Assembly: GCA_003194425.1 (NCBI GenBank)
Contig: PQXB01000001.1
Location: 1,082,728 to 1,114,727, forward strand
Origin: Candidatus Methanophagaceae archaeon
GTDB taxonomy: Archaea; Halobacteriota; Syntropharchaeia; Alkanophagales; Methanospirareceae
Length of the DNA: 32,000 nt
Direction of reading: 5' to 3'
Part shown: positions 20,538-31,895 of the stretch, piece after piece
How positions within the stretch are numbered: the first letter of the stretch is position 1
How the letters are laid out: each line of letters opens with the position of its first letter
Translations under genes and position numbers: made by a program
The notes under the pieces: model-generated
What the model was told of the DNA's origin: nothing
What the model saw: only the letters and a program-made list of their open reading frames with translations
Database searches by the model: none

Positions 20538-20591
20538 TTTAGCACTTGGTGTTAGCAGGATTAAATAGGAATAGGAGGAAGTGGAAGTAAA

Positions 20592-20822
20592 ATGGAAAAA
20601 GTAGTAGAGAAGATAAAATTAGGTAATGAGATAAAACTATCAAAAGAAGCTTTGGAAGCACTTGGAGTAAAAATCGGTGAGGAGATAATTTTAATGATTA
20701 AAGGCAGAGAAGTAGTGATAAAACCGGCTAAAAGTATCATTGACGAAGTTGCAGGTGCTGCTGAGTTAGAGGACACCGAGTTAATAGACAAAATAATAGA
20801 AGATACCGAATTTAAGAGGTAA
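20592..20822 (+). CDS. vapB: AbrB/SpoVT-fold antitoxin (VapB-like)
   Basis: 76 aa. KLGNEIKLSKEALEALGVKIGEEIILMIKGREVVIKP is a SpoVT/AbrB swapped-hairpin pattern. Lies 10 nt upstream of a PIN gene. Confidence 0.75.
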   Translation: MEKVVEKIKLGNEIKLSKEALEALGVKIGEEIILMIKGREVVIKPAKSIIDEVAGAAELEDTELIDKIIEDTEFKR

Positions 20823-20832
20823 AAACTGAAAA

Positions 20833-21324
20833 ATGAGATTAGAAGATGTTCATCGAGGAGAGCGAATATTCATAGACACGAATATATTTACATATTTACT
20901 CGTCAAGGATAAGAGATACATTAATTCTGTAAAATCCTTCTTGAAAAAGGTGGAAGGAGGTTTTTACACGGGTTTCTTCAACTTGACGGTCTTTGACGAG
21001 ACTTCGTTTAACTTTATTAAATTAAAAGTGATTAAGAAGTATGGAATAAAAAGGGGAGAGTTTAGCGACTTTTATAAGCAAAATCCGAATTTGGTGCGAG
21101 AAATAGACTTTGAACCGGTTTTAAAGCTTTTTTCAATTGATAATCTCAATCTTTTAACGCCTAAACTAATCCTGGAGCTGGTAACAGAGTTTTCGAGCGA
21201 ACACGCTTTACTACCTGCGGATGCAATCATTTTGGCGACGATGAAAGAGCACAGCATAGTAAATCTCGCCTCGAACGACCACGATTTTGAGCGAGTTGAT
21301 TGGATAAATTTATATAAACCATAA
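20833..21324 (+). CDS. vapC: PIN-domain ribonuclease toxin (VapC-like)
   Basis: IFIDTNIF near the N-terminus, DAIILATM and NDHDF near the C-terminus supply the PIN acidic residues. Confidence 0.8.
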   Translation: MRLEDVHRGERIFIDTNIFTYLLVKDKRYINSVKSFLKKVEGGFYTGFFNLTVFDETSFNFIKLKVIKKYGIKRGEFSDFYKQNPNLVREIDFEPVLKLFSIDNLNLLTPKLILELVTEFSSEHALLPADAIILATMKEHSIVNLASNDHDFERVDWINLYKP

Positions 21325-21332
21325 ACAAAATT
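21284..21332. repeat. Repeat B, right copy (intact vapC 3' end)
   Basis: See 20446-20494. Confidence 0.8.
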
Positions 21333-21411
21333 CTTCTTCTGCCCTCGCCCTTTTTTGACTTGTTCTTACCGAGGGCATTTACTTCTTACTACCTCTCTCT
21401 ATAAAAAGGTT
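21331..21411. repeat. Repeat A, right copy, abutting repeat B
   Basis: See 20340-20420. Same hairpin (gccctcg/cgagggc) and tataaaaa element. Confidence 0.85.
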
Positions 21412-21418
21412 CAATTTT

Positions 21419-21628
21419 TTATTTATTCGCCAACGGCTTTTGACTCAATATCGGCGTCAAGAACCCAATTACCGTCCTCGAAGCGTCCAATATCTCTATC
21501 TTCACCAACCGCCCCTCCCTCGTGTAATGCAAAATCATCTCCTCTCCCGCCGCCTCGCCGTAATCAGGCTTCTCTTCGCTTATTCTTATGTCCAACGCAT
21601 CCGCATCAGCGTAGTATTTTATCTTCAT
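21419..21628 (-). CDS. DUF2283-family antitoxin-like protein
   Basis: MKIKYYADADALDIRISEEKPDYGE...LVKIEILDAS is the DUF2283 pattern. ATG at 21628 preferred over the GTG at 21637. Preceded by aggtgg. Confidence 0.7.
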   Translation of the reverse strand: MKIKYYADADALDIRISEEKPDYGEAAGEEMILHYTREGRLVKIEILDASRTVIGFLTPILSQKPLANK

Positions 21629-21630
21629 AG

Positions 21631-21713
21631 ATTCCACCTCTAAAATATCTTATTCACCTGGGCGACATAAAAATTCCACCTCTGAAATATCTATTCACCT
21701 GGGCGACATAAAA
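21631..21713. repeat. 42/41-nt tandem duplication at the toxin-antitoxin junction
   Basis: attccacctct(a/g)aaatatct(t)attcacctgggcgacataaaa x2. The duplication contains the original toxin stop and the antitoxin ribosome-binding region. Confidence 0.85.
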
Positions 21714-22010
21714 AGTTATCACAACAACCGTCTCCCCCTCGTACTCATAAACTACTCTCGCCAAATGCCGATTCAGTCTTTTATGCGCGATGAAACGATT
21801 CCCGTGTCCTCTTACAACTTCTTCGGAGCAGAGAAGGAAATTCACGAGCTCGTCTACCGAGAAATTATAATCCTCTGCCCCGTCCAAAGCGTGCCAAGTC
21901 AGCACCACACGAAAAACGCCTCTCTCTGCTTTGACCTCTAATCGCTTGCCTCTTGGTGCGTCGGTGGAGTTGATAATTTTTATCCTCTCGCCTCCCACTC
22001 TTTCCACCAT
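21654..22010 (-). CDS. DUF4258-family toxin-like protein
   Basis: TWHALDGAEDYNFSVDELVNFLL...RVVYEYEGETVVVITFY matches the DUF4258 layout (H-A-L-x-R/G ... VITVY). Paired with DUF2283 downstream. Confidence 0.6.
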   Translation of the reverse strand: MVERVGGERIKIINSTDAPRGKRLEVKAERGVFRVVLTWHALDGAEDYNFSVDELVNFLLCSEEVVRGHGNRFIAHKRLNRHLARVVYEYEGETVVVITFYVAQVNRYFRGGIFMSPR

Positions 22011-22034
22011 CTCAAAACCCTTCTTTAAAACTTT

Positions 22035-22217
22035 TCATACATCTTCCTGTCGTCTGTCATCAGCCTTGCGCCCGCAACTTCCGCACAACTCCTTCTCCCT
22101 CATTTCTCTGACGACCTCCGTTGTGTCCTCATAATCAACCATTTTCTCACTTATTTTTCTAATCACCTCCTCAAGTCTCACTCGCACCCCTCCCTTCTCC
22201 GTCTTCCAGAATTTCAT
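22035..22217 (-). CDS. Small hypothetical protein (60 aa)
   Basis: ORF only. Same strand as the TA pair and immediately upstream of it. No family recognised. Confidence 0.3.
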   Translation of the reverse strand: MKFWKTEKGGVRVRLEEVIRKISEKMVDYEDTTEVVREMREKELCGSCGRKADDRRQEDV

Positions 22218-22301
22218 CGAATCGAAAGGAACAATTTAAAAGTTTCACACTGCCGTCTCTTATTCGGAGAGGAGACAACTCAAAATGGAAAGCCTAAAAA
22301 G

Positions 22302-22428
22302 AGGCACAGCAGCGATCCCCAGTTCCCAAGTGCTCGCGCAACTCAGTACCGTAGGGAACGCTGGCGGGCTTATCTGCCGGGTTCGGAATGAGACCGGGAG
22401 TTGCCCCGCCGCTGTGGCCGCTGTGCCC
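22302..22428 (-). rRNA. rrf: 5S ribosomal RNA (stand-alone gene)
   Basis: Minus strand reads GGGCACAGCGGCCACAGCGGCGGGGCAACUCCCGGUCUCAUUCCGAACCCGGCAGAUAAGCCCGCCAGCGUUCCCUACGGUACUG...GGGAUCGCUGCUGUGCCUC. It has the conserved CCGAACCCGG..A.AAGCC core and complementary termini (GGCACAGC/GCUGUGCC), and is followed by oligo-T. Ends are +/- 3 nt. Confidence 0.9.
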
Positions 22429-26941: not shown

Positions 26942-28468
26942 ATGGCAGCGGCAGAAGGAGAGGAGAAGTTCCCGTTTGAGATAAACCCGATGTACGAGGG
27001 CGAGCGGGTGCGGAAGGCGGGAATGTTTGTGGAGCTGGCCGGGCAGAGCAAGCCGGGGTTTGAGCTGGTTCTCTTTGAGCCCGACCCTGCGAAGATAAAA
27101 GACGGCGAGGTTAGTTTAGTGGGGCCGGACTTGGAGGAGATGCAGGAGGGCGGGAACTACGCTTACGCAATGATTTACAGGGTCACGGGCGAGCAGCTCG
27201 AGAAGGACCTTGAGGCGGTTATTGAACGGCGGAACCACGAGTACCAGTCCTACATTCAGGGCTACATGCACCTGAACCAGCGTGCTGAGATTTGGGTGCG
27301 GATAAGCAAGGACGCGGTGAGGAAGGGGTTGAAGTCGCTGAAGCAGATTGGACGGGCGACGATTCAGCTCTTCAAGTCCGAACTGCCGTTCATCGAGAAA
27401 ATGGCAGTGGAGTTCGTTACCGACGAGGCGGAGGTGGAGAAGCGGTTAGAGGAGGCGAGCCGGATTTACGAGGCGCGGGACGCGAAGGCACGGGGGCTGC
27501 ACGACGAGGATGTGGACGAGTTTTACCAGTGCACGCTTTGTCAGTCGTTTGCACCGACGAACGTCTGCGTTGTCTCGCCGGACAGGTTTGCGTTGTGCGG
27601 TGCAATGAGTTGGTTCGACTCGCGGGCGGCGGCTCGGGTTGACCCCGAGGGACCGAACGCACCAATTCCAAAAGGCGAGTGTCTTGACCCTGTCGGTGGG
27701 GAGTACACGGGCGTTAACGAGGCTGCGGTTCGGCTCTCGAGCGGGGAGTACGACTCGATAAAACTGCACTCGTTCTTTGAGAAGCCGCACACGAGTTGCG
27801 GCTGTTTCGAGGTTGCGGGGTTCTACATTCCCGAAGTCGACGGCGTCGGCTGGGTGCACCGGGGCTCGAGGGTTTCTGACACGCCGATTGGACTGCCTTT
27901 TTCGACGATCGCAGGCTCGGTCGGCGGCGGTAAGCAGGTGCAGGGTTTCCTCGGAATCGGAATTCAATATTTTTACAGCTCAAAATTTATCCAAGCAGAC
28001 GGCAGCTGGCGACGCGTTGTCTGGATGGCTTCGGACTTGAAGGAGCGTGTTGCGGAGGCTATTCCCGCGGAGATGCGAGACCGGATCGCGACCGAGAAGG
28101 ATGTGAAGGATGTAGGAGAGCTGCGGGAATTCTTGCAAAAAGTGGGGCACCCAGTCGTGGAAGGCGTTGTCCGCGCTGTTGACGGCGTACGTGTGACCGA
28201 GGGCTGGGCAGTGGAGGAAGAGGAAGAGGAAGAGGAAGAGGTAGAAGAAGCAGCAAAGGTAGAGGAGGGACCTGTTGAAGTGCCGCAGGCACAGGCAGCG
28301 GCTCAAGTTCCGCTTGCGTCTGCGTCCGCGTTTGTGCCGCCACTGGCGGGGGCAGGTGCGTTCGGCGTTGCGGGTGGAGTGGCTGGTTCTGCACCGATAA
28401 AAATAATTTTGAAGGACGCGGAAATCAAAATCGGGAAAATAATCGTGAAGCGGAAAGAGGGGAAGTAG
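26942..28468 (+). CDS. cdhC: Acetyl-CoA decarbonylase/synthase complex subunit beta (A-cluster, acetyl-CoA synthase)
   Basis: FPFEINPMYEGERVRK... and CTLCQSFAPTNVCVVSPDR..LCGA.SW.D.RAA (A-cluster Cys ligands). Has a C-terminal poly-Glu / Ala-rich extension. Confidence 0.9.
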   Translation: MAAAEGEEKFPFEINPMYEGERVRKAGMFVELAGQSKPGFELVLFEPDPAKIKDGEVSLVGPDLEEMQEGGNYAYAMIYRVTGEQLEKDLEAVIERRNHEYQSYIQGYMHLNQRAEIWVRISKDAVRKGLKSLKQIGRATIQLFKSELPFIEKMAVEFVTDEAEVEKRLEEASRIYEARDAKARGLHDEDVDEFYQCTLCQSFAPTNVCVVSPDRFALCGAMSWFDSRAAARVDPEGPNAPIPKGECLDPVGGEYTGVNEAAVRLSSGEYDSIKLHSFFEKPHTSCGCFEVAGFYIPEVDGVGWVHRGSRVSDTPIGLPFSTIAGSVGGGKQVQGFLGIGIQYFYSSKFIQADGSWRRVVWMASDLKERVAEAIPAEMRDRIATEKDVKDVGELREFLQKVGHPVVEGVVRAVDGVRVTEGWAVEEEEEEEEEVEEAAKVEEGPVEVPQAQAAAQVPLASASAFVPPLAGAGAFGVAGGVAGSAPIKIILKDAEIKIGKIIVKRKEGK

Positions 28469-28496
28469 AGAAACGGAAAGAGGGGAAGTAGAGAAA
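28451..28496. repeat. 23-nt perfect tandem duplication containing the cdhC stop codon
   Basis: cggaaagaggggaagtagagaaa at 28451-28473 and 28474-28496. Stop tag at 28466-28468. Confidence 0.9.
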
Positions 28497-28525
28497 TTTT
28501 GGAGAAAATAGAAGGAACAATTAAA

Positions 28526-29060
28526 ATGAGTGAAATAAGGCACAAAGTGTTTATCTCGTATCATCACGAGGACCAAGATGAAGTAGAGGATTTTATTGAG
28601 ACCTTCGACTACGAGCGTAATGTCTTTATCTCGCGCGCTTGGCATCGCGGACGATATTATCAACAGCACTGACACAGACTATGTAATGCGACGCATTAGA
28701 GAATCGTATCTGAAAGATTCCACCGTAACCATCGTGTTGATCGGTAAATGCACTTGGGCTCGTCGCTATGTCGACTGGGAGATACAAGCGTCGCTCCGAC
28801 ATGGTGAGACGGTCACACCTAACGGATTGTTGGGGATTAAATTACCAAGTTACAATAAGACTAGCTACCCCGACAGGTTTAATAAAAACCTTAAGCAAAA
28901 CGACCAACAAAAAGATTGCTATGCAAGAGTAATTGATTATCCCACACGCAAGGATACTTTAACTAATTGGCTTGAGGACGCTTTCCAAGCCCGCACTAGT
29001 AGATCACATTTCATCGTAAATCCACGAGATAGGTTCAAGTACAACAGGACATGTCCATAA
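28526..29060 (+). pseudogene. ThsB-like / DUF1863 TIR-like domain protein, interrupted by a +1 frame change
   Basis: Own translation from ATG 28526: MSEIRHKVFISYHHEDQDEVEDFIETFDYERNVFISRA..., with a stop at 28670. It continues in the +1 frame (track ORF 28596..29060): ...ALGIADDIINSTDTDYVMRRIRESYLKDSTVTIVLIGKCTWARRYVDWEIQASL...GLLGIKLP. Together these give the TIR-like beta-A (FISYhhxD) and VTxVLIGxxTxxRxWVxYEI pattern seen in Thoeris ThsB. Confidence 0.7.
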
Positions 29061-29066
29061 AAAACT

Positions 29067-29621
29067 ATGCCAAAAAAGCTAACCAGTGTGAAAGTCAGCC
29101 TTAAGTTGCCTTACATTGGCGGAGTCGAAGGAACCTGGGAACCCGACAAGAGCGAGCGAAACGCAGCGTGGGAGATGTACGTTGAACTGATCACTCGCAT
29201 TTCGGTAGCGGAACTAAAGCCTGACGAGGGCTTGCTCCGAGAGGCTCTTTCTTCGCTTCACACTCTCTTTGACACAACCAGGAAAATCCTACGGAAATAC
29301 GGCCCTTCCATCGCGCAGCCGAAGGGCAAAGGCAACGGCAACGGCAATCTCTCGTTTGGCTACCTCGCTGTGGCTGTCCTAAATGTTGTGCTGCGTCCAG
29401 TCTTAGCGAAGTGGCATCCACTACTTCTTGACTACGAAACCACCAAAAAAAGTTCCGTTTCGCGGTTGGAGCACGAGAAACAATGGGATAAAAATGAAGA
29501 ATTACGGCGAGTTCTAAACGAAATCCGCACCGTGCTTATCGAATACGCGAACTTACTTGCACAGGTTGCAGGTGTGCCTCCACTCATCGTTCAAAGAAAA
29601 AATGAAACAAGAGCAGATTGA
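29067..29621 (+). CDS. Hypothetical 184-aa protein, probably helical, no recognisable family; partner of the TIR-like gene
   Basis: ORF begins 6 nt after the TIR-like stop. Its 3' end overlaps the next gene by 20 nt. Has a GKGNGNGN loop. No catalytic motif or clear TM segment recognised. Confidence 0.6.
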   Translation: MPKKLTSVKVSLKLPYIGGVEGTWEPDKSERNAAWEMYVELITRISVAELKPDEGLLREALSSLHTLFDTTRKILRKYGPSIAQPKGKGNGNGNLSFGYLAVAVLNVVLRPVLAKWHPLLLDYETTKKSSVSRLEHEKQWDKNEELRRVLNEIRTVLIEYANLLAQVAGVPPLIVQRKNETRAD

Positions 29622-29892
29622 AAAAATAAAGAAAACGCTCATTGAAGTGTTGAGGAAATATGGAGTGAAAAAGGCTGCTCTTTTTGGCTCTGTCGCAAGG
29701 GGGGAAGCTACTGAAGAGAGCGACATTGACCTGCTGATTGAATTTGAAGGAAGAAAGAGTTTGTTGGATCTTGCGGGTTTAAAATTAGAACTTCAGGAAT
29801 TGCTGAGAAGGCGGGTTGATCTTCTCACTTACAAATCCCTTCACCCGCTCCTCAAGGAGAGGATATTGAGCGAGCAAGAGGAGATTTTATAA
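29602..29892 (+). CDS. mntA: Minimal nucleotidyltransferase (MNT/MntA-type antitoxin)
   Basis: LFGSVARGEATEESDIDLLIEF is the GS-x10-DxD pol-beta NTase motif. Start set to MKQEQIEKIKK (29602). Confidence 0.8.
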   Translation: MKQEQIEKIKKTLIEVLRKYGVKKAALFGSVARGEATEESDIDLLIEFEGRKSLLDLAGLKLELQELLRRRVDLLTYKSLHPLLKERILSEQEEIL

Positions 29893-29893
29893 G

Positions 29894-29971
29894 ATGAAGA
29901 AAGACGCCGAGACATTCATCGAGCATATTTTAGAGTGCGTTGAGTTGATTGAAAAAAATTGTAAAGATTAA
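29894..29971 (+). pseudogene. Truncated HEPN/DUF86 (HepT-like) toxin remnant, 25 codons
   Basis: Own translation: MKKDAETFIEHILECVELIEKNCKD-stop. This resembles the first helix of DUF86 proteins (normally ~110-140 aa). It begins 1 nt after the MNT stop. Confidence 0.5.
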
Positions 29972-30038
29972 AAAGGGAACTAAACATAAACAAAATAGAG
30001 AGGAAAAAGAGAAAAGGAGAGTGAGTTAGGATGGAGAA

Positions 30039-30542
30039 TGAGTCAAGACAACGGACAGAGTGGGCAACCCCCCGCTTGGGTGCCATAGGCAAAGGTGGGA
30101 GCGTGCTACAAGAAAGGGTGGCACCAACTGTGGAACTACCCTTTAGAACTGCTGCTCATAACAATTGTAGGCTTCGTCATTTCTCCCCCCTCTCACGGCT
30201 TCTCTGCTGCTAAAGAGGTGGAGGGAGCGGGGGCTTATTTTCTCTCCATTTTTGCTTTAGCCTACACGCTTCTGCTTGTCTGGCCCGTTGGCTACGGCAT
30301 TTCGTTCGCCTACCTCAAAGCAGCCAGAGGCGAGCAGCCGAGTGTCAAAGATGTGTTTGACGCGCTTTGACTGTCTTTTTCATCGGCTTGCTGGGAATTC
30401 CTGTTATCTTGGCAGGACTGCTCTGCTTCGTTGTCGGAGTTGTTGTGGCACTTGTGTGGATTCAAATCGCCTCCGCTTCGCTCTACCTCGCAGTAAGCGA
30501 AGAAAAAAGTAAAGATTTAAAAAGGCAGCCAGACAAAGAGTA
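30039..30542 (+). pseudogene. Decayed integral-membrane protein gene (pieces in three frames)
   Basis: Frame a: MSQDNGQSGQPPAWVP-stop, ending just after a C-homopolymer. Frame b: track ORF 30095..30370 (..KKGWHQLWNYPLELLLITIVGFVI...ISFAYLKAARGEQPSVKDVFDAL-stop). Frame c: FIGLLGIPVILAGLLCFVVGVVVALVWIQIASASLYLAVSEEKSKDLKRQPDKE-stop at 30542. Confidence 0.45.
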
Positions 30543-30548
30543 AGCGAA

Positions 30549-31895
30549 ATGGCGAAGAAAATAACCTCAGCGGACCTGGAGGAGCGGCTGGAGAAGCACG
30601 AAGTGGTGGAGTTGGATGGGGTAGAGATAAAGGGCGATTTGGAGTTTGAATTGTCCGCGGCGGGCGGTGTGGCTGTTCCTCCTTCAGTGCTTCAGCAGGC
30701 ACTGCAGTCCGTCTTGGGCGTGCAGTCGTTGGCGCAGGTGGCTCAGGCAGCACTGCAGTCCGTCTTGGGCGGCGGCGTGCAGGCAGGTACAGGCGAGACA
30801 GAGACAGCGAGGAAAATAGAGGCGCAGGAGTTAGCGACGGCGAGGTTTGAAGTTGCGAAGGCGAAGTGGGTGGGGAAGGTAGAAGAGGTTACACTTGGTG
30901 CTACTTCGTCGGACGGTGGCACGAGGGAGAAAGTGGTGAAAATAGGGGGCGAGAAATCGCTGCCGTTCTACAACTTCGACCACAAAATGCCGCACGCACC
31001 AGTGATTTCGGTGGACTGCTTTGACATCCCAATTCCGCTTGCGAAGGCGGTGCGGGGGCACTACGAGGATGTGATGCAGGACCCGGGGGAGTGGGCGAAG
31101 AAGAATGTGCGTGAGTTCGGCGCGGATATGGTCACGATTCACCTAATCAGCACCGACCCGCTGATAAACGACACGCCGGCGCGGGAGGCGGCGAAGACTG
31201 TTGAAGAGGTGCTGCAGGCTGTAAAAGTTCCGATTGTCATCGGCGGGTCGGGGAACCCAGAGAAAGACCCCGCGGTCTTGGAGGCTGCTGCGGAGGCTGC
31301 CGAAGGCGAGCGGTGTCTAATCGCGTCTGCGAACTTGAATATGGACTACAAGCGAATAGCGAACGCGGCAAAGGAGCACGGACACACAATTCTCTCGTGG
31401 ACGCAGCTCGACATAAACGCGCAGAAGACGCTGAACCGCTACCTCTTCAAACTCGGCGTGCCACGGGAAGACATCGTGATTGACCCGACGACCGCGGCAC
31501 TGGGCTACGGTCTGGACTACGCGTTCACTAACATCGAGCGGATGCGAATCTCGGCGCTGAAAGGGGACACTGATTTGGCGTTCCCGATTTCCTGCGGCAT
31601 TACGAACGCGTGGGGTGCGAGGGAGGCGTGGATGAAGAATTCGCCGATTGCCGAAGACTCAGACTGGGGACCGGCGGCTTACAGGGGTCCTTTGTACGAA
31701 ATTATGACTGGGCTGACTCTGGGGGTTGCGGGCGGGGACTTGTTTATGATGATGCATCCCAAGGCTGCGGCTGCGGTCAAGCGCGTGACGCAGATGCTGT
31801 TTGGTGCTGCTGCGAAGGAGGGGGCGGAGGCGGGGGCGGAAGAAGAGGGAAGGAAGATAAAAGTAGAGGATTGGGTAAGTTGGGGCGGTCGGTGA
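30549..31895 (+). CDS. cdhD: Acetyl-CoA decarbonylase/synthase complex subunit delta (corrinoid/Fe-S protein small subunit)
   Basis: WVGKVEEVTLGA...VKIGGEKSLPFYNFD...ADMVTIHLISTDP...PIVIGGSGNPEKDP..LE.AAE...DPTTAALGYG.. is typical CdhD/AcsD. The N-terminal region carries a 51-nt imperfect in-frame duplication. Confidence 0.9.
   Translation: MAKKITSADLEERLEKHEVVELDGVEIKGDLEFELSAAGGVAVPPSVLQQALQSVLGVQSLAQVAQAALQSVLGGGVQAGTGETETARKIEAQELATARFEVAKAKWVGKVEEVTLGATSSDGGTREKVVKIGGEKSLPFYNFDHKMPHAPVISVDCFDIPIPLAKAVRGHYEDVMQDPGEWAKKNVREFGADMVTIHLISTDPLINDTPAREAAKTVEEVLQAVKVPIVIGGSGNPEKDPAVLEAAAEAAEGERCLIASANLNMDYKRIANAAKEHGHTILSWTQLDINAQKTLNRYLFKLGVPREDIVIDPTTAALGYGLDYAFTNIERMRISALKGDTDLAFPISCGITNAWGAREAWMKNSPIAEDSDWGPAAYRGPLYEIMTGLTLGVAGGDLFMMMHPKAAAAVKRVTQMLFGAAAKEGAEAGAEEEGRKIKVEDWVSWGGR

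Follow-up and report, generated by a model that had tools for sequence, protein, structure and literature searches.

Gene content and lesions of the cdhC-cdhD gap

We analysed a 32,000-nt stretch (the window) of contig PQXB01000001.1 from a Candidatus Methanophagaceae archaeon, a member of group 1 of the anaerobic methanotrophic archaea (ANME-1). In this window, two subunit genes of acetyl-CoA decarbonylase/synthase (ACDS), cdhC and cdhD, are separated by an island of small genes of toxin-antitoxin (TA) and defence type. The left anchor, cdhC (beta subunit; 26942..28468, + strand), matches the Pfam families CdhC (1.8e-56) and ACS_CODH_B_C (3.1e-78), and the right anchor, cdhD (delta subunit; 30549..31895, +), matches Pfam CdhD (4.3e-80). 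An earlier reading of the same DNA, made from its letters only and hereafter called the sequence-only reading, had placed about 2 kb between the two genes and had seen there a TIR-like gene, a partner of unknown nature, an MNT antitoxin, a HEPN stub and a decayed membrane-protein gene, all co-oriented with cdh and three of the five disrupted. The distance was measured as 2,080 bp (28469-30548), all five genes were recovered on the same strand, and three of them (TIR, HepT and the membrane-protein gene) are indeed broken when compared with conspecific contig L007, which served as the intact reference allele for lesion mapping and encodes a TIR protein of 178 aa, the 184-aa protein, an MNT of 96 aa, a HepT of 112 aa and a membrane protein of 110 aa.

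Briefly, the first gene (28526..29060, +) is a ThsB-type TIR pseudogene (Pfam ThsB_TIR) split into two frames (28526-~28631 and ~28632-29060) by a 2-bp deletion at 28631. It is followed by an intact ORF of 184 aa (domain X; 29067..29621, +), which has no family match. The next gene, also intact (29602..29892, +), overlaps it by 20 nt and encodes an MntA-type nucleotidyltransferase antitoxin (MNT) recognised by Pfam NTP_transf_2 (5e-20) and NCBIfam MntA_antitoxin (7e-16; 58.0 bits, just short of the 60-bit cut-off); it shows no substitution between the window and L007, and the L007 protein is 100% identical to those of L008 and L010 (tblastn). Of HepT, the HEPN RNase toxin, a stub of 25 codons remains (29894..29971, +), left by a 268-bp deletion at 29953 that is also found in L008, while the 112-aa L007 orthologue matches Pfam HepT-like at 1.4e-31. 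Finally, the membrane-protein gene remnant (30038..30543, +) lies in two pieces (30038-30370 and 30367-30543); compared with L007 it carries a GAG>TAG nonsense mutation at 30086-30088, and a stop with a change of frame at 30368-30370 is present in every strain. This last gene has no family match, and tblastn finds homologues of it in conspecific loci only.

The comparison with L007 shows that TIR and HepT, the presumed toxic or catalytic members, are inactivated in the window and that their partners, the 184-aa protein and MNT, are intact. Two independent Logan assemblies from other runs (L002 and L004) match the window base for base over 28306-30320, which shows that the lesions located upstream of 30320 are real.

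The greater A/T-richness that had been noticed by eye was borne out by measurement: GC content is 0.459 for 28497-30548 against 0.583 for cdhC and 0.589 for cdhD, and equally low values occur in 7.4% of the same-size windows across the 32 kb, all of them within a second TA island at ~20.2-22.2 kb. A composition equal to that of the flanking genes, which the sequence-only reading had named as fatal to its proposal, was not found in codon usage either. The GC content at third codon positions (GC3) of the pooled TIR, 184-aa and MNT genes is 0.49, compared with 0.53-0.74 (mostly >0.6) in 16 long ORFs of the window, and their synonymous-codon log-likelihood lies 3.5 standard deviations under that of the same ORFs. 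The suggested preference for aaa, att and tta codons stands in part, since AAA (52 per 1000 codons vs 26) and TTA (18 vs 8) are raised but ATT is not (24.7 vs 24.4).

Strain alleles and the junction in other lineages

The CdhD of the window is 100% identical to P0001, which bears the NCBI name 'ANME-1 cluster archaeon ex4572_4', a lineage represented by a metagenome-assembled genome (MAG) from the Guaymas Basin (PMC5569505). An exact-sequence look-up with CdhD returned 21 contigs, in all of which the flanks are 97.8-99.5% identical to the window (blastn). Across strains, homology ends one base past the cdhC stop codon (28469) and restarts at 30291; the borders, 28469/28470 and 30290/30291, are the same for all three forms of cargo, and the 258-bp right segment (30291..30548, +) is strain-invariant (blastn of L005-L014 and L026 vs the window).

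The first allele, TIR-184-MNT-HepT-membrane, is that of the window; it is fully intact in L007 and also present in the partial contigs L008 and L010; the placement of L010 in the mafft alignment looked unreliable and was not used. The second (L005, L009, L011, L026) consists of ~400 bp with the adjacent antitoxin and toxin domains that define HicAB type II TA systems. Its HicB matches Pfam HicB_lk_antitox (1.5e-11); its HicA is disrupted by a frameshift in a T-run and cut at its 3' end by the 30291 junction, and the HicA_toxin match (6e-11) is obtained only with the two frames joined by hand. The third (L006, L012) is a ~258-bp derivative of the HicBA allele with an internal hicB deletion. Contigs L003, L013 and L014 are broken exactly at the borders, as is expected because the site is polymorphic. 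In the TIR-type allele the membrane ORF runs through 30291 without a break, whereas in the HicBA allele HicA ends there. The HicBA allele therefore derives from an ancestor in which the membrane gene was already present, by deletion of the HicA 3' end together with the membrane 5' half.

As judged from these alignments, the gap region is accessory DNA, with 28470-30290 as its strain-variable part. The sequence-only reading, which had an island inserted at 28497-30548, was thus right about foreign cargo but not about its unity: the island is a stepwise mosaic, and 30291-30548 is common to all strains.

Tandem duplications of 11, 16 and 23 bp were seen in different strains at and near the borders, among them at window coordinates 28447-28496 and 30469. 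The 23-bp one (28447..28496, +) spans the cdhC stop codon and is strain-specific: neither L007 nor any HicBA-type strain has it, and in some of the latter 11 bp are duplicated at the same spot; a 16-bp one at 30469 is found in most strains but not in the window. Duplications at the cdhC stop were seen in L005, L006 and L011, and within hicA in L009 and L012. This recurrence suggests slippage-prone, purine-rich sequence.

Other lineages were covered by a metagenome scan with CdhD (80 loci) and three look-ups, the loci being screened by tblastn and ORF calls. In seven of them (L030, L031, L033, L040, L045, L074, L075) cdhC and cdhD abut, 4-40 nt apart, at times with just a stop codon, AGGAGG and ATG. 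The gap is ~80-150 nt in L044, L063, L064 and L067, and ~230 nt without a recognised ORF in L029. MNT-HepT lies in the gap of three loci, intact in L015 (some 11-12 GC points under its flanks), as MNT with a partial HepT in L032, and as HepT alone, internally deleted, in L028. Other occupants are a PAS gene, VIT1 and a 403-aa gene (L016) and, in L043, L049, L055, L057 and L066, ~2.8 kb of near-native GC with a polyprenyl synthase, a UbiX-type flavoprotein and an amino-acid-kinase-fold gene. Because these housekeeping-type genes occur there in several lineages, the junction accepts non-conflict insertions too.

Relatives sharing the island genes with native composition, the other observation that the sequence-only reading had held to speak against it, were looked for and not found: cdhC and cdhD abut in other ANME-1 species and enclose HicBA in conspecific strains, and MNT-HepT of L015 is itself low in GC. 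In a rough neighbour-joining tree of CdhD, the abutting-gene loci fall between the window lineage and the L015 group, and this position of abutting loci between two TA-bearing lineages implies that the junction has been invaded repeatedly, by housekeeping as well as conflict genes. The comparison shows cdhC abutting cdhD as the ancestral state of ANME-1.

The sequence-only reading had mentioned the usual arrangement of archaeal cdh operons, in which a CooC/AcsF-type accessory gene separates the two subunit genes. This arrangement is found in the more distant relatives L072, L077 and L089, where a single co-oriented gene for a CooC-type ATPase occupies the same gap, but not in the window: CooC is missing there, and the closest ANME-1 relatives have lost it and have cdhC abutting cdhD. 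Nor is a full ACDS operon present here. The gene order in the window is purD-like, argF, cdhC, gap, cdhD, and the window ends inside the spacer 3' of cdhD; in conspecific contigs (L005-L014), from which the downstream genes were read, a B12-binding radical-SAM gene comes next after cdhD and then a helix-turn-helix gene, whereas cdhE is directly 3' of cdhD in all other ANME-1 loci examined. Because the downstream gene is of the B12/radical-SAM type and not cdhE, the locus in this species amounts to no more than the cdhC-cdhD part of an ACDS cluster. The radical-SAM protein (525 aa; 3900-5477 in L007) matches NCBIfam TIGR04013 at 4e-23, far under the cut-off, and is also similar to the methyl-coenzyme M reductase glutamine C-methyltransferase family.

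The two modules of the island

MNT-HepT and HicBA are textbook modules. In L007, the MNT gene (1272-1562) comes first and the HepT gene (1564-1902) directly follows, in agreement with type VII TA systems of the MntA-HepT kind in gene order, in abutting or overlapping coding sequences, in the expected sizes (96 and 112 aa) and in the Pfam pair NTP_transf_2 and HepT-like. The Pfam thresholds are easily passed, and the 60-bit NCBIfam equivalog cut-offs are missed by both MntA_antitoxin (58.0) and HepT_toxin (54.6). The window differs from such systems in that its toxin is cut to 25 codons, leaving an orphan antitoxin.

Between L007 and L015, amino acid identity is 86-88% for MNT and HepT against 76-83% for ArgF, CdhC and CdhD. 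The TA genes have a synonymous divergence (pS) of 0.46-0.48, whereas argF, cdhC and cdhD reach 0.69-0.79; at third codon positions, identity is 0.69 in the TA genes and 0.47-0.50 in cdhC and cdhD. No raised identity was seen in the cdhC 3' or cdhD 5' ends between these two loci. The lower pS of the TA genes points to later transfer and not to co-descent with the host genes. Because the ratio of non-synonymous to synonymous change (dN/dS) for MNT-HepT is ~0.08 in the same comparison, the intact copies are under purifying selection. HepT has decayed independently in L032 and L028. WS2, WOR-3, Nitrospinae, Methanofastidiosia and other groups have HepT homologues of 72-88% identity. Of the relatives at 88% and 81%, one lies 3' of frhB beside an IS66 transposase and the other beside a pseudouridine synthase gene. 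Besides L015, MNT-HepT is thus found without TIR in non-cdh contexts at 81-88% identity, and we conclude that it behaves as a promiscuous cassette, apparently captured more than once.

The other module pairs the TIR gene with the 184-aa gene. The L007 TIR orthologue (178 aa) is recognised by Pfam ThsB_TIR (1.8e-20), by PADLOC ThsB (7e-12) and by the candidate model PDC-M50B (1.4e-10), and a conserved W-x-E segment (VDWEI) is present in TIR; a literature search on PDC-M50 found nothing. The 184-aa gene lies directly 3' of a ThsB_TIR gene in every context examined (L019-L025), a small sample that amounts to three independent contexts and the window locus. The neighbours of such pairs are other TIR/AAA proteins, a SNF2 helicase, HicAB and a TIR-TPR giant. 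Pairs without MNT-HepT occur in Clostridia, Halobacteriota and other MAGs, with identities of 65-79% for TIR and 76-78% for the 184-aa protein.

Searches of Pfam, NCBIfam and PADLOC gave no match for the 184-aa protein, and there was no hit to Pfam EAD, Death-like or other adaptor families. The family of the 184-aa protein is large, with 1,385 homologues in a 90%-clustered database, falling into 1,124 clusters at 50% identity; the best 120 of the 1,385 are 72-99% identical and come from Armatimonadetes, Clostridia and Halobacteriota MAGs. The domain is also found in fusions, after TIR_2 or at the N-terminus of 750-1,400-aa proteins that have SLOG cluster 2 at their C-terminal end or include a calcineurin-like phosphoesterase domain, and in a plasmid gene annotated by its record as patatin-like phospholipase. 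A scan of viral contigs for the family returned none, and a plasmid search returned distant homologues only (30-49%), annotated as hypothetical.

A confident AlphaFold2 model of the protein (predicted local distance difference test 83, predicted template modelling score 0.80) consists of a beta-hairpin and a bundle of four or five helices. No significant fold match was obtained with Foldseek (best E 0.35 in PDB and 0.03 in BFVD), and no sequence match in PDB (best E 0.37). Among 172 diverse domain hits, conservation is highest at W35, E40, R44, R58, E59, S63, R72, N106, R110, W116, H117 and E124, numbered as in the 184-aa protein of the window. Because these residues are mostly polar, the set looks more like a ligand pocket or active site than like part of a passive adaptor. 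They include an R-x6-H spacing, but a HEPN-like reading of the protein was set aside, since its only basis was this spacing together with Foldseek hits to AbiV and HepT-MNT that are not significant (E 1.4-1.9). The ANME-1 copy further carries a GNGNGN loop insertion (KGKGNGNGNLS; window 29331-29348) that is absent from 29 of 29 aligned homologues. The L008 copy has one GN unit fewer, so this short coding repeat varies between strains.

A 2025 preprint (Yirmiya et al., 10.64898/2025.12.03.692087) describes 29 putative types of Thoeris that follow a 'ThsB + variable effector' plan. The pair described here shares with Thoeris a ThsB-family TIR gene, a conserved second gene in the operon and neighbourhoods resembling defence islands. 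It differs in that the partner falls outside the Pfam effector families named there (SIR2-SLOG, Macro, DUF2270, DUF6650, DUF2188), in that no recognised effector family or PADLOC model covers the partner and in that the window TIR is frameshifted. The 184-aa domain may be an undescribed Thoeris-like component, and the TIR-184 pair is the sole component of the island with real potential for novelty, though inactivated in the window. The partner family, which is large, unannotated and consistently found with ThsB-type TIR proteins, is a candidate for defence-system screens.

A probable strain-variable hotspot and its surroundings

Considering both the alleles and the modules, the cdhC-cdhD junction is probably a permissive, strain-variable hotspot where small addiction and defence cassettes have piled up and are now decaying; going by where its parts recur, the island is a mosaic of promiscuous modules built in steps and not one element. 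The strain comparison shows the small membrane-protein gene beside cdhD as the first occupant of the gap in this species and, upstream of it, either hicB-hicA or the mosaic of ThsB-TIR with the 184-aa gene and of MNT with HepT, depending on the strain. In the scenario that we propose, the modules would have come separately by horizontal transfer; for each of them, unrelated bacteria and archaea have near-identical counterparts. Cassettes would persist through TA addiction and the tolerance of an intergenic site to insertion, and alleles would be swapped within the species by homologous recombination via the flanks, cdhC on one side and cdhD with the membrane remnant on the other. Once the toxin gene was lost, the remaining genes would drift, and in the other allele HicA is likewise dead. 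By analogy with known systems, the intact MNT-HepT of L007 would act as a type VII TA system, its HEPN RNase neutralised by MNT-catalysed AMPylation, and the intact TIR and 184-aa proteins would act as a Thoeris-like pair. In the window itself, we infer that the island is probably functionless cargo save for any effect on transcription, and this largely dead copy probably has little physiological effect.

Several observations weigh against this hotspot scenario. No integrase, transposase or recombinase gene lies in the gap to account for insertion, no tRNA gene was found within the 32-kb window, and repeats at the borders show no similarity above chance (p ~0.3, three alleles, dinucleotide shuffles). 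Host genes differ strongly in GC3 between the two lineages, a shift that may exaggerate the contrast in pS, and on the rough neighbour-joining tree one gain of MNT-HepT with one clean loss is as parsimonious as two gains. The order of module insertion is only partly resolved, and the recombination route of allele exchange is one that we infer.

Alternatively, MNT-HepT could be an old vertical resident of the spacer, already there when the window and L015 lineages separated, that some lineages later shed cleanly and that has become a domesticated regulator of ACDS expression. In favour of this, a second ANME-1 species cluster (L015, L032, L028) has the pair (86-88% aa identity) at this junction as well, the GC3 of the pair follows that of the host in each lineage (0.46-0.50 vs 0.33-0.38), suggesting some amelioration, and the dN/dS of the pair is low. 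We nevertheless consider this history improbable, as the synonymous divergence of the pair lies well under that of the flanking host genes, the adjacent-gene clade is nested between the two TA-bearing lineages, equally close HepT homologues occur in unrelated contexts and phyla, and repeated deletion or truncation of the toxin (window, L008, L032, L028) is unexpected for a domesticated regulator.

Sharp borders common to all strains could instead mark a single insertion of one discrete mobile element (a mini-integrative element or what is left of a transposon) that duplicated the cdhC-stop/cdhD-start junction as its target site. The tandem duplication at the cdhC stop and a weak similarity between the left end and the cdhD start would fit such an event, as would an imperfect direct repeat of 37 nt found by local alignment (29950..29986, +, with its partner at 30498-30535). 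This pair brackets the membrane-gene remnant, is the sole match of at least 20/27 in the 32 kb and scores 20 against 13.7 +/- 2.1 in dinucleotide shuffles (p ~0.014); it may mark an older insertion of the membrane gene or be two copies of a BRE/TATA-like element. However, the border resemblance in the three alleles, tried as an attachment (att) site or target-site duplication, is at chance level, in agreement with the sequence-only reading, which had seen no att-like repeats by eye. The 23-bp duplication, also tried as an att site, was rejected as strain-specific, tandem and not flanking the island. With neither recombinase gene nor flanking direct repeats, and with modules that live separately elsewhere, a single element is very unlikely. 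Still less credible is an assembly artefact, be it a chimeric join of strains or frameshift errors, although the sequence comes from a MAG and the site varies within the population, with frequent contig breaks at its borders. The two Logan assemblies reproduce the duplication, the frameshift and the HepT deletion, the last of which is independently present in L008, and the joins are spanned by other contigs (cdhC-island in L002 and L007; island-cdhD in L007, L008 and L010).

The hotspot reading agrees with recent work on ANME-1 that found strain differences concentrated in hypervariable hotspots, which are rich in hicAB and further type II TA and restriction-modification genes and where TA operons show insertions and partial deletions among the strain-level structural variants (Zhou et al., Nat Commun 2026, PMC13385816). 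The clade is the same, and the alternative allele found here is a partly deleted hicBA cassette. This locus differs in lying between two subunit genes of a central-metabolism enzyme and in having a TIR/MNT-HepT mosaic as its second allele; cdh, HEPN, TIR and nucleotidyltransferase are unmentioned in the main text of that article. The general phenomenon has therefore been known since 2026, and the cdhC-cdhD locus is a new, well-resolved instance of it. It gives base-pair borders within the ACDS gene cluster for one such hotspot, usable as a strain marker, and a natural series from intact through decayed to alternative allele for the study of TA and defence cargo turnover in an uncultured methane oxidiser. 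A bolder proposal, which we put forward tentatively and do not expect to hold, is that the TIR-184 pair is an undescribed Thoeris-like system whose partner has a new sensor or effector fold (R44, R58, E59, S63, R72, N106, R110, H117, E124) and, separately, that the junction may be a preferred capture site coupling cassettes to the expression of the central carbon enzyme of ANME-1.

The alleles also raise the question of how cdhD is expressed with 0.5-2.3 kb of foreign DNA between it and cdhC. In the window, cdhD would need either a 2-kb read-through or its own promoter, possibly the TATA-like box TTTAAAAA at 30516-30523, 33 nt 5' of the cdhD ATG, which is compatible with such a promoter and with a leaderless or short-leader mRNA. 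In the species where cdhC and cdhD abut, the spacer between them is Shine-Dalgarno-like and fit for translational coupling; the window lacks such a motif. There is no excess of terminator-like oligo-T runs in the island, and an Rfam scan of it gave no match.

Apart from this locus, a second and stronger low-GC island lies at 20560-22220 (GC 0.35-0.40), beside a lone 5S rRNA gene at 22304-22425 (- strand; Rfam RF00001, 97 bits), with no 16S or 23S gene within the 32-kb window. It holds a MazE/AbrB-like antitoxin gene (20592-20822; weak Pfam match) paired with a PIN-domain toxin gene (20833-21324) and, on the minus strand, a DUF2283 gene (21419-21637) paired with a DUF4258-like one (21654-22010; weak match). 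Finally, the 3' region of cdhC (28200-28260) encodes an acidic low-complexity run, EEEEEEEEVEE, and the C-terminal tail of CdhC is rich in Ala and Gly.

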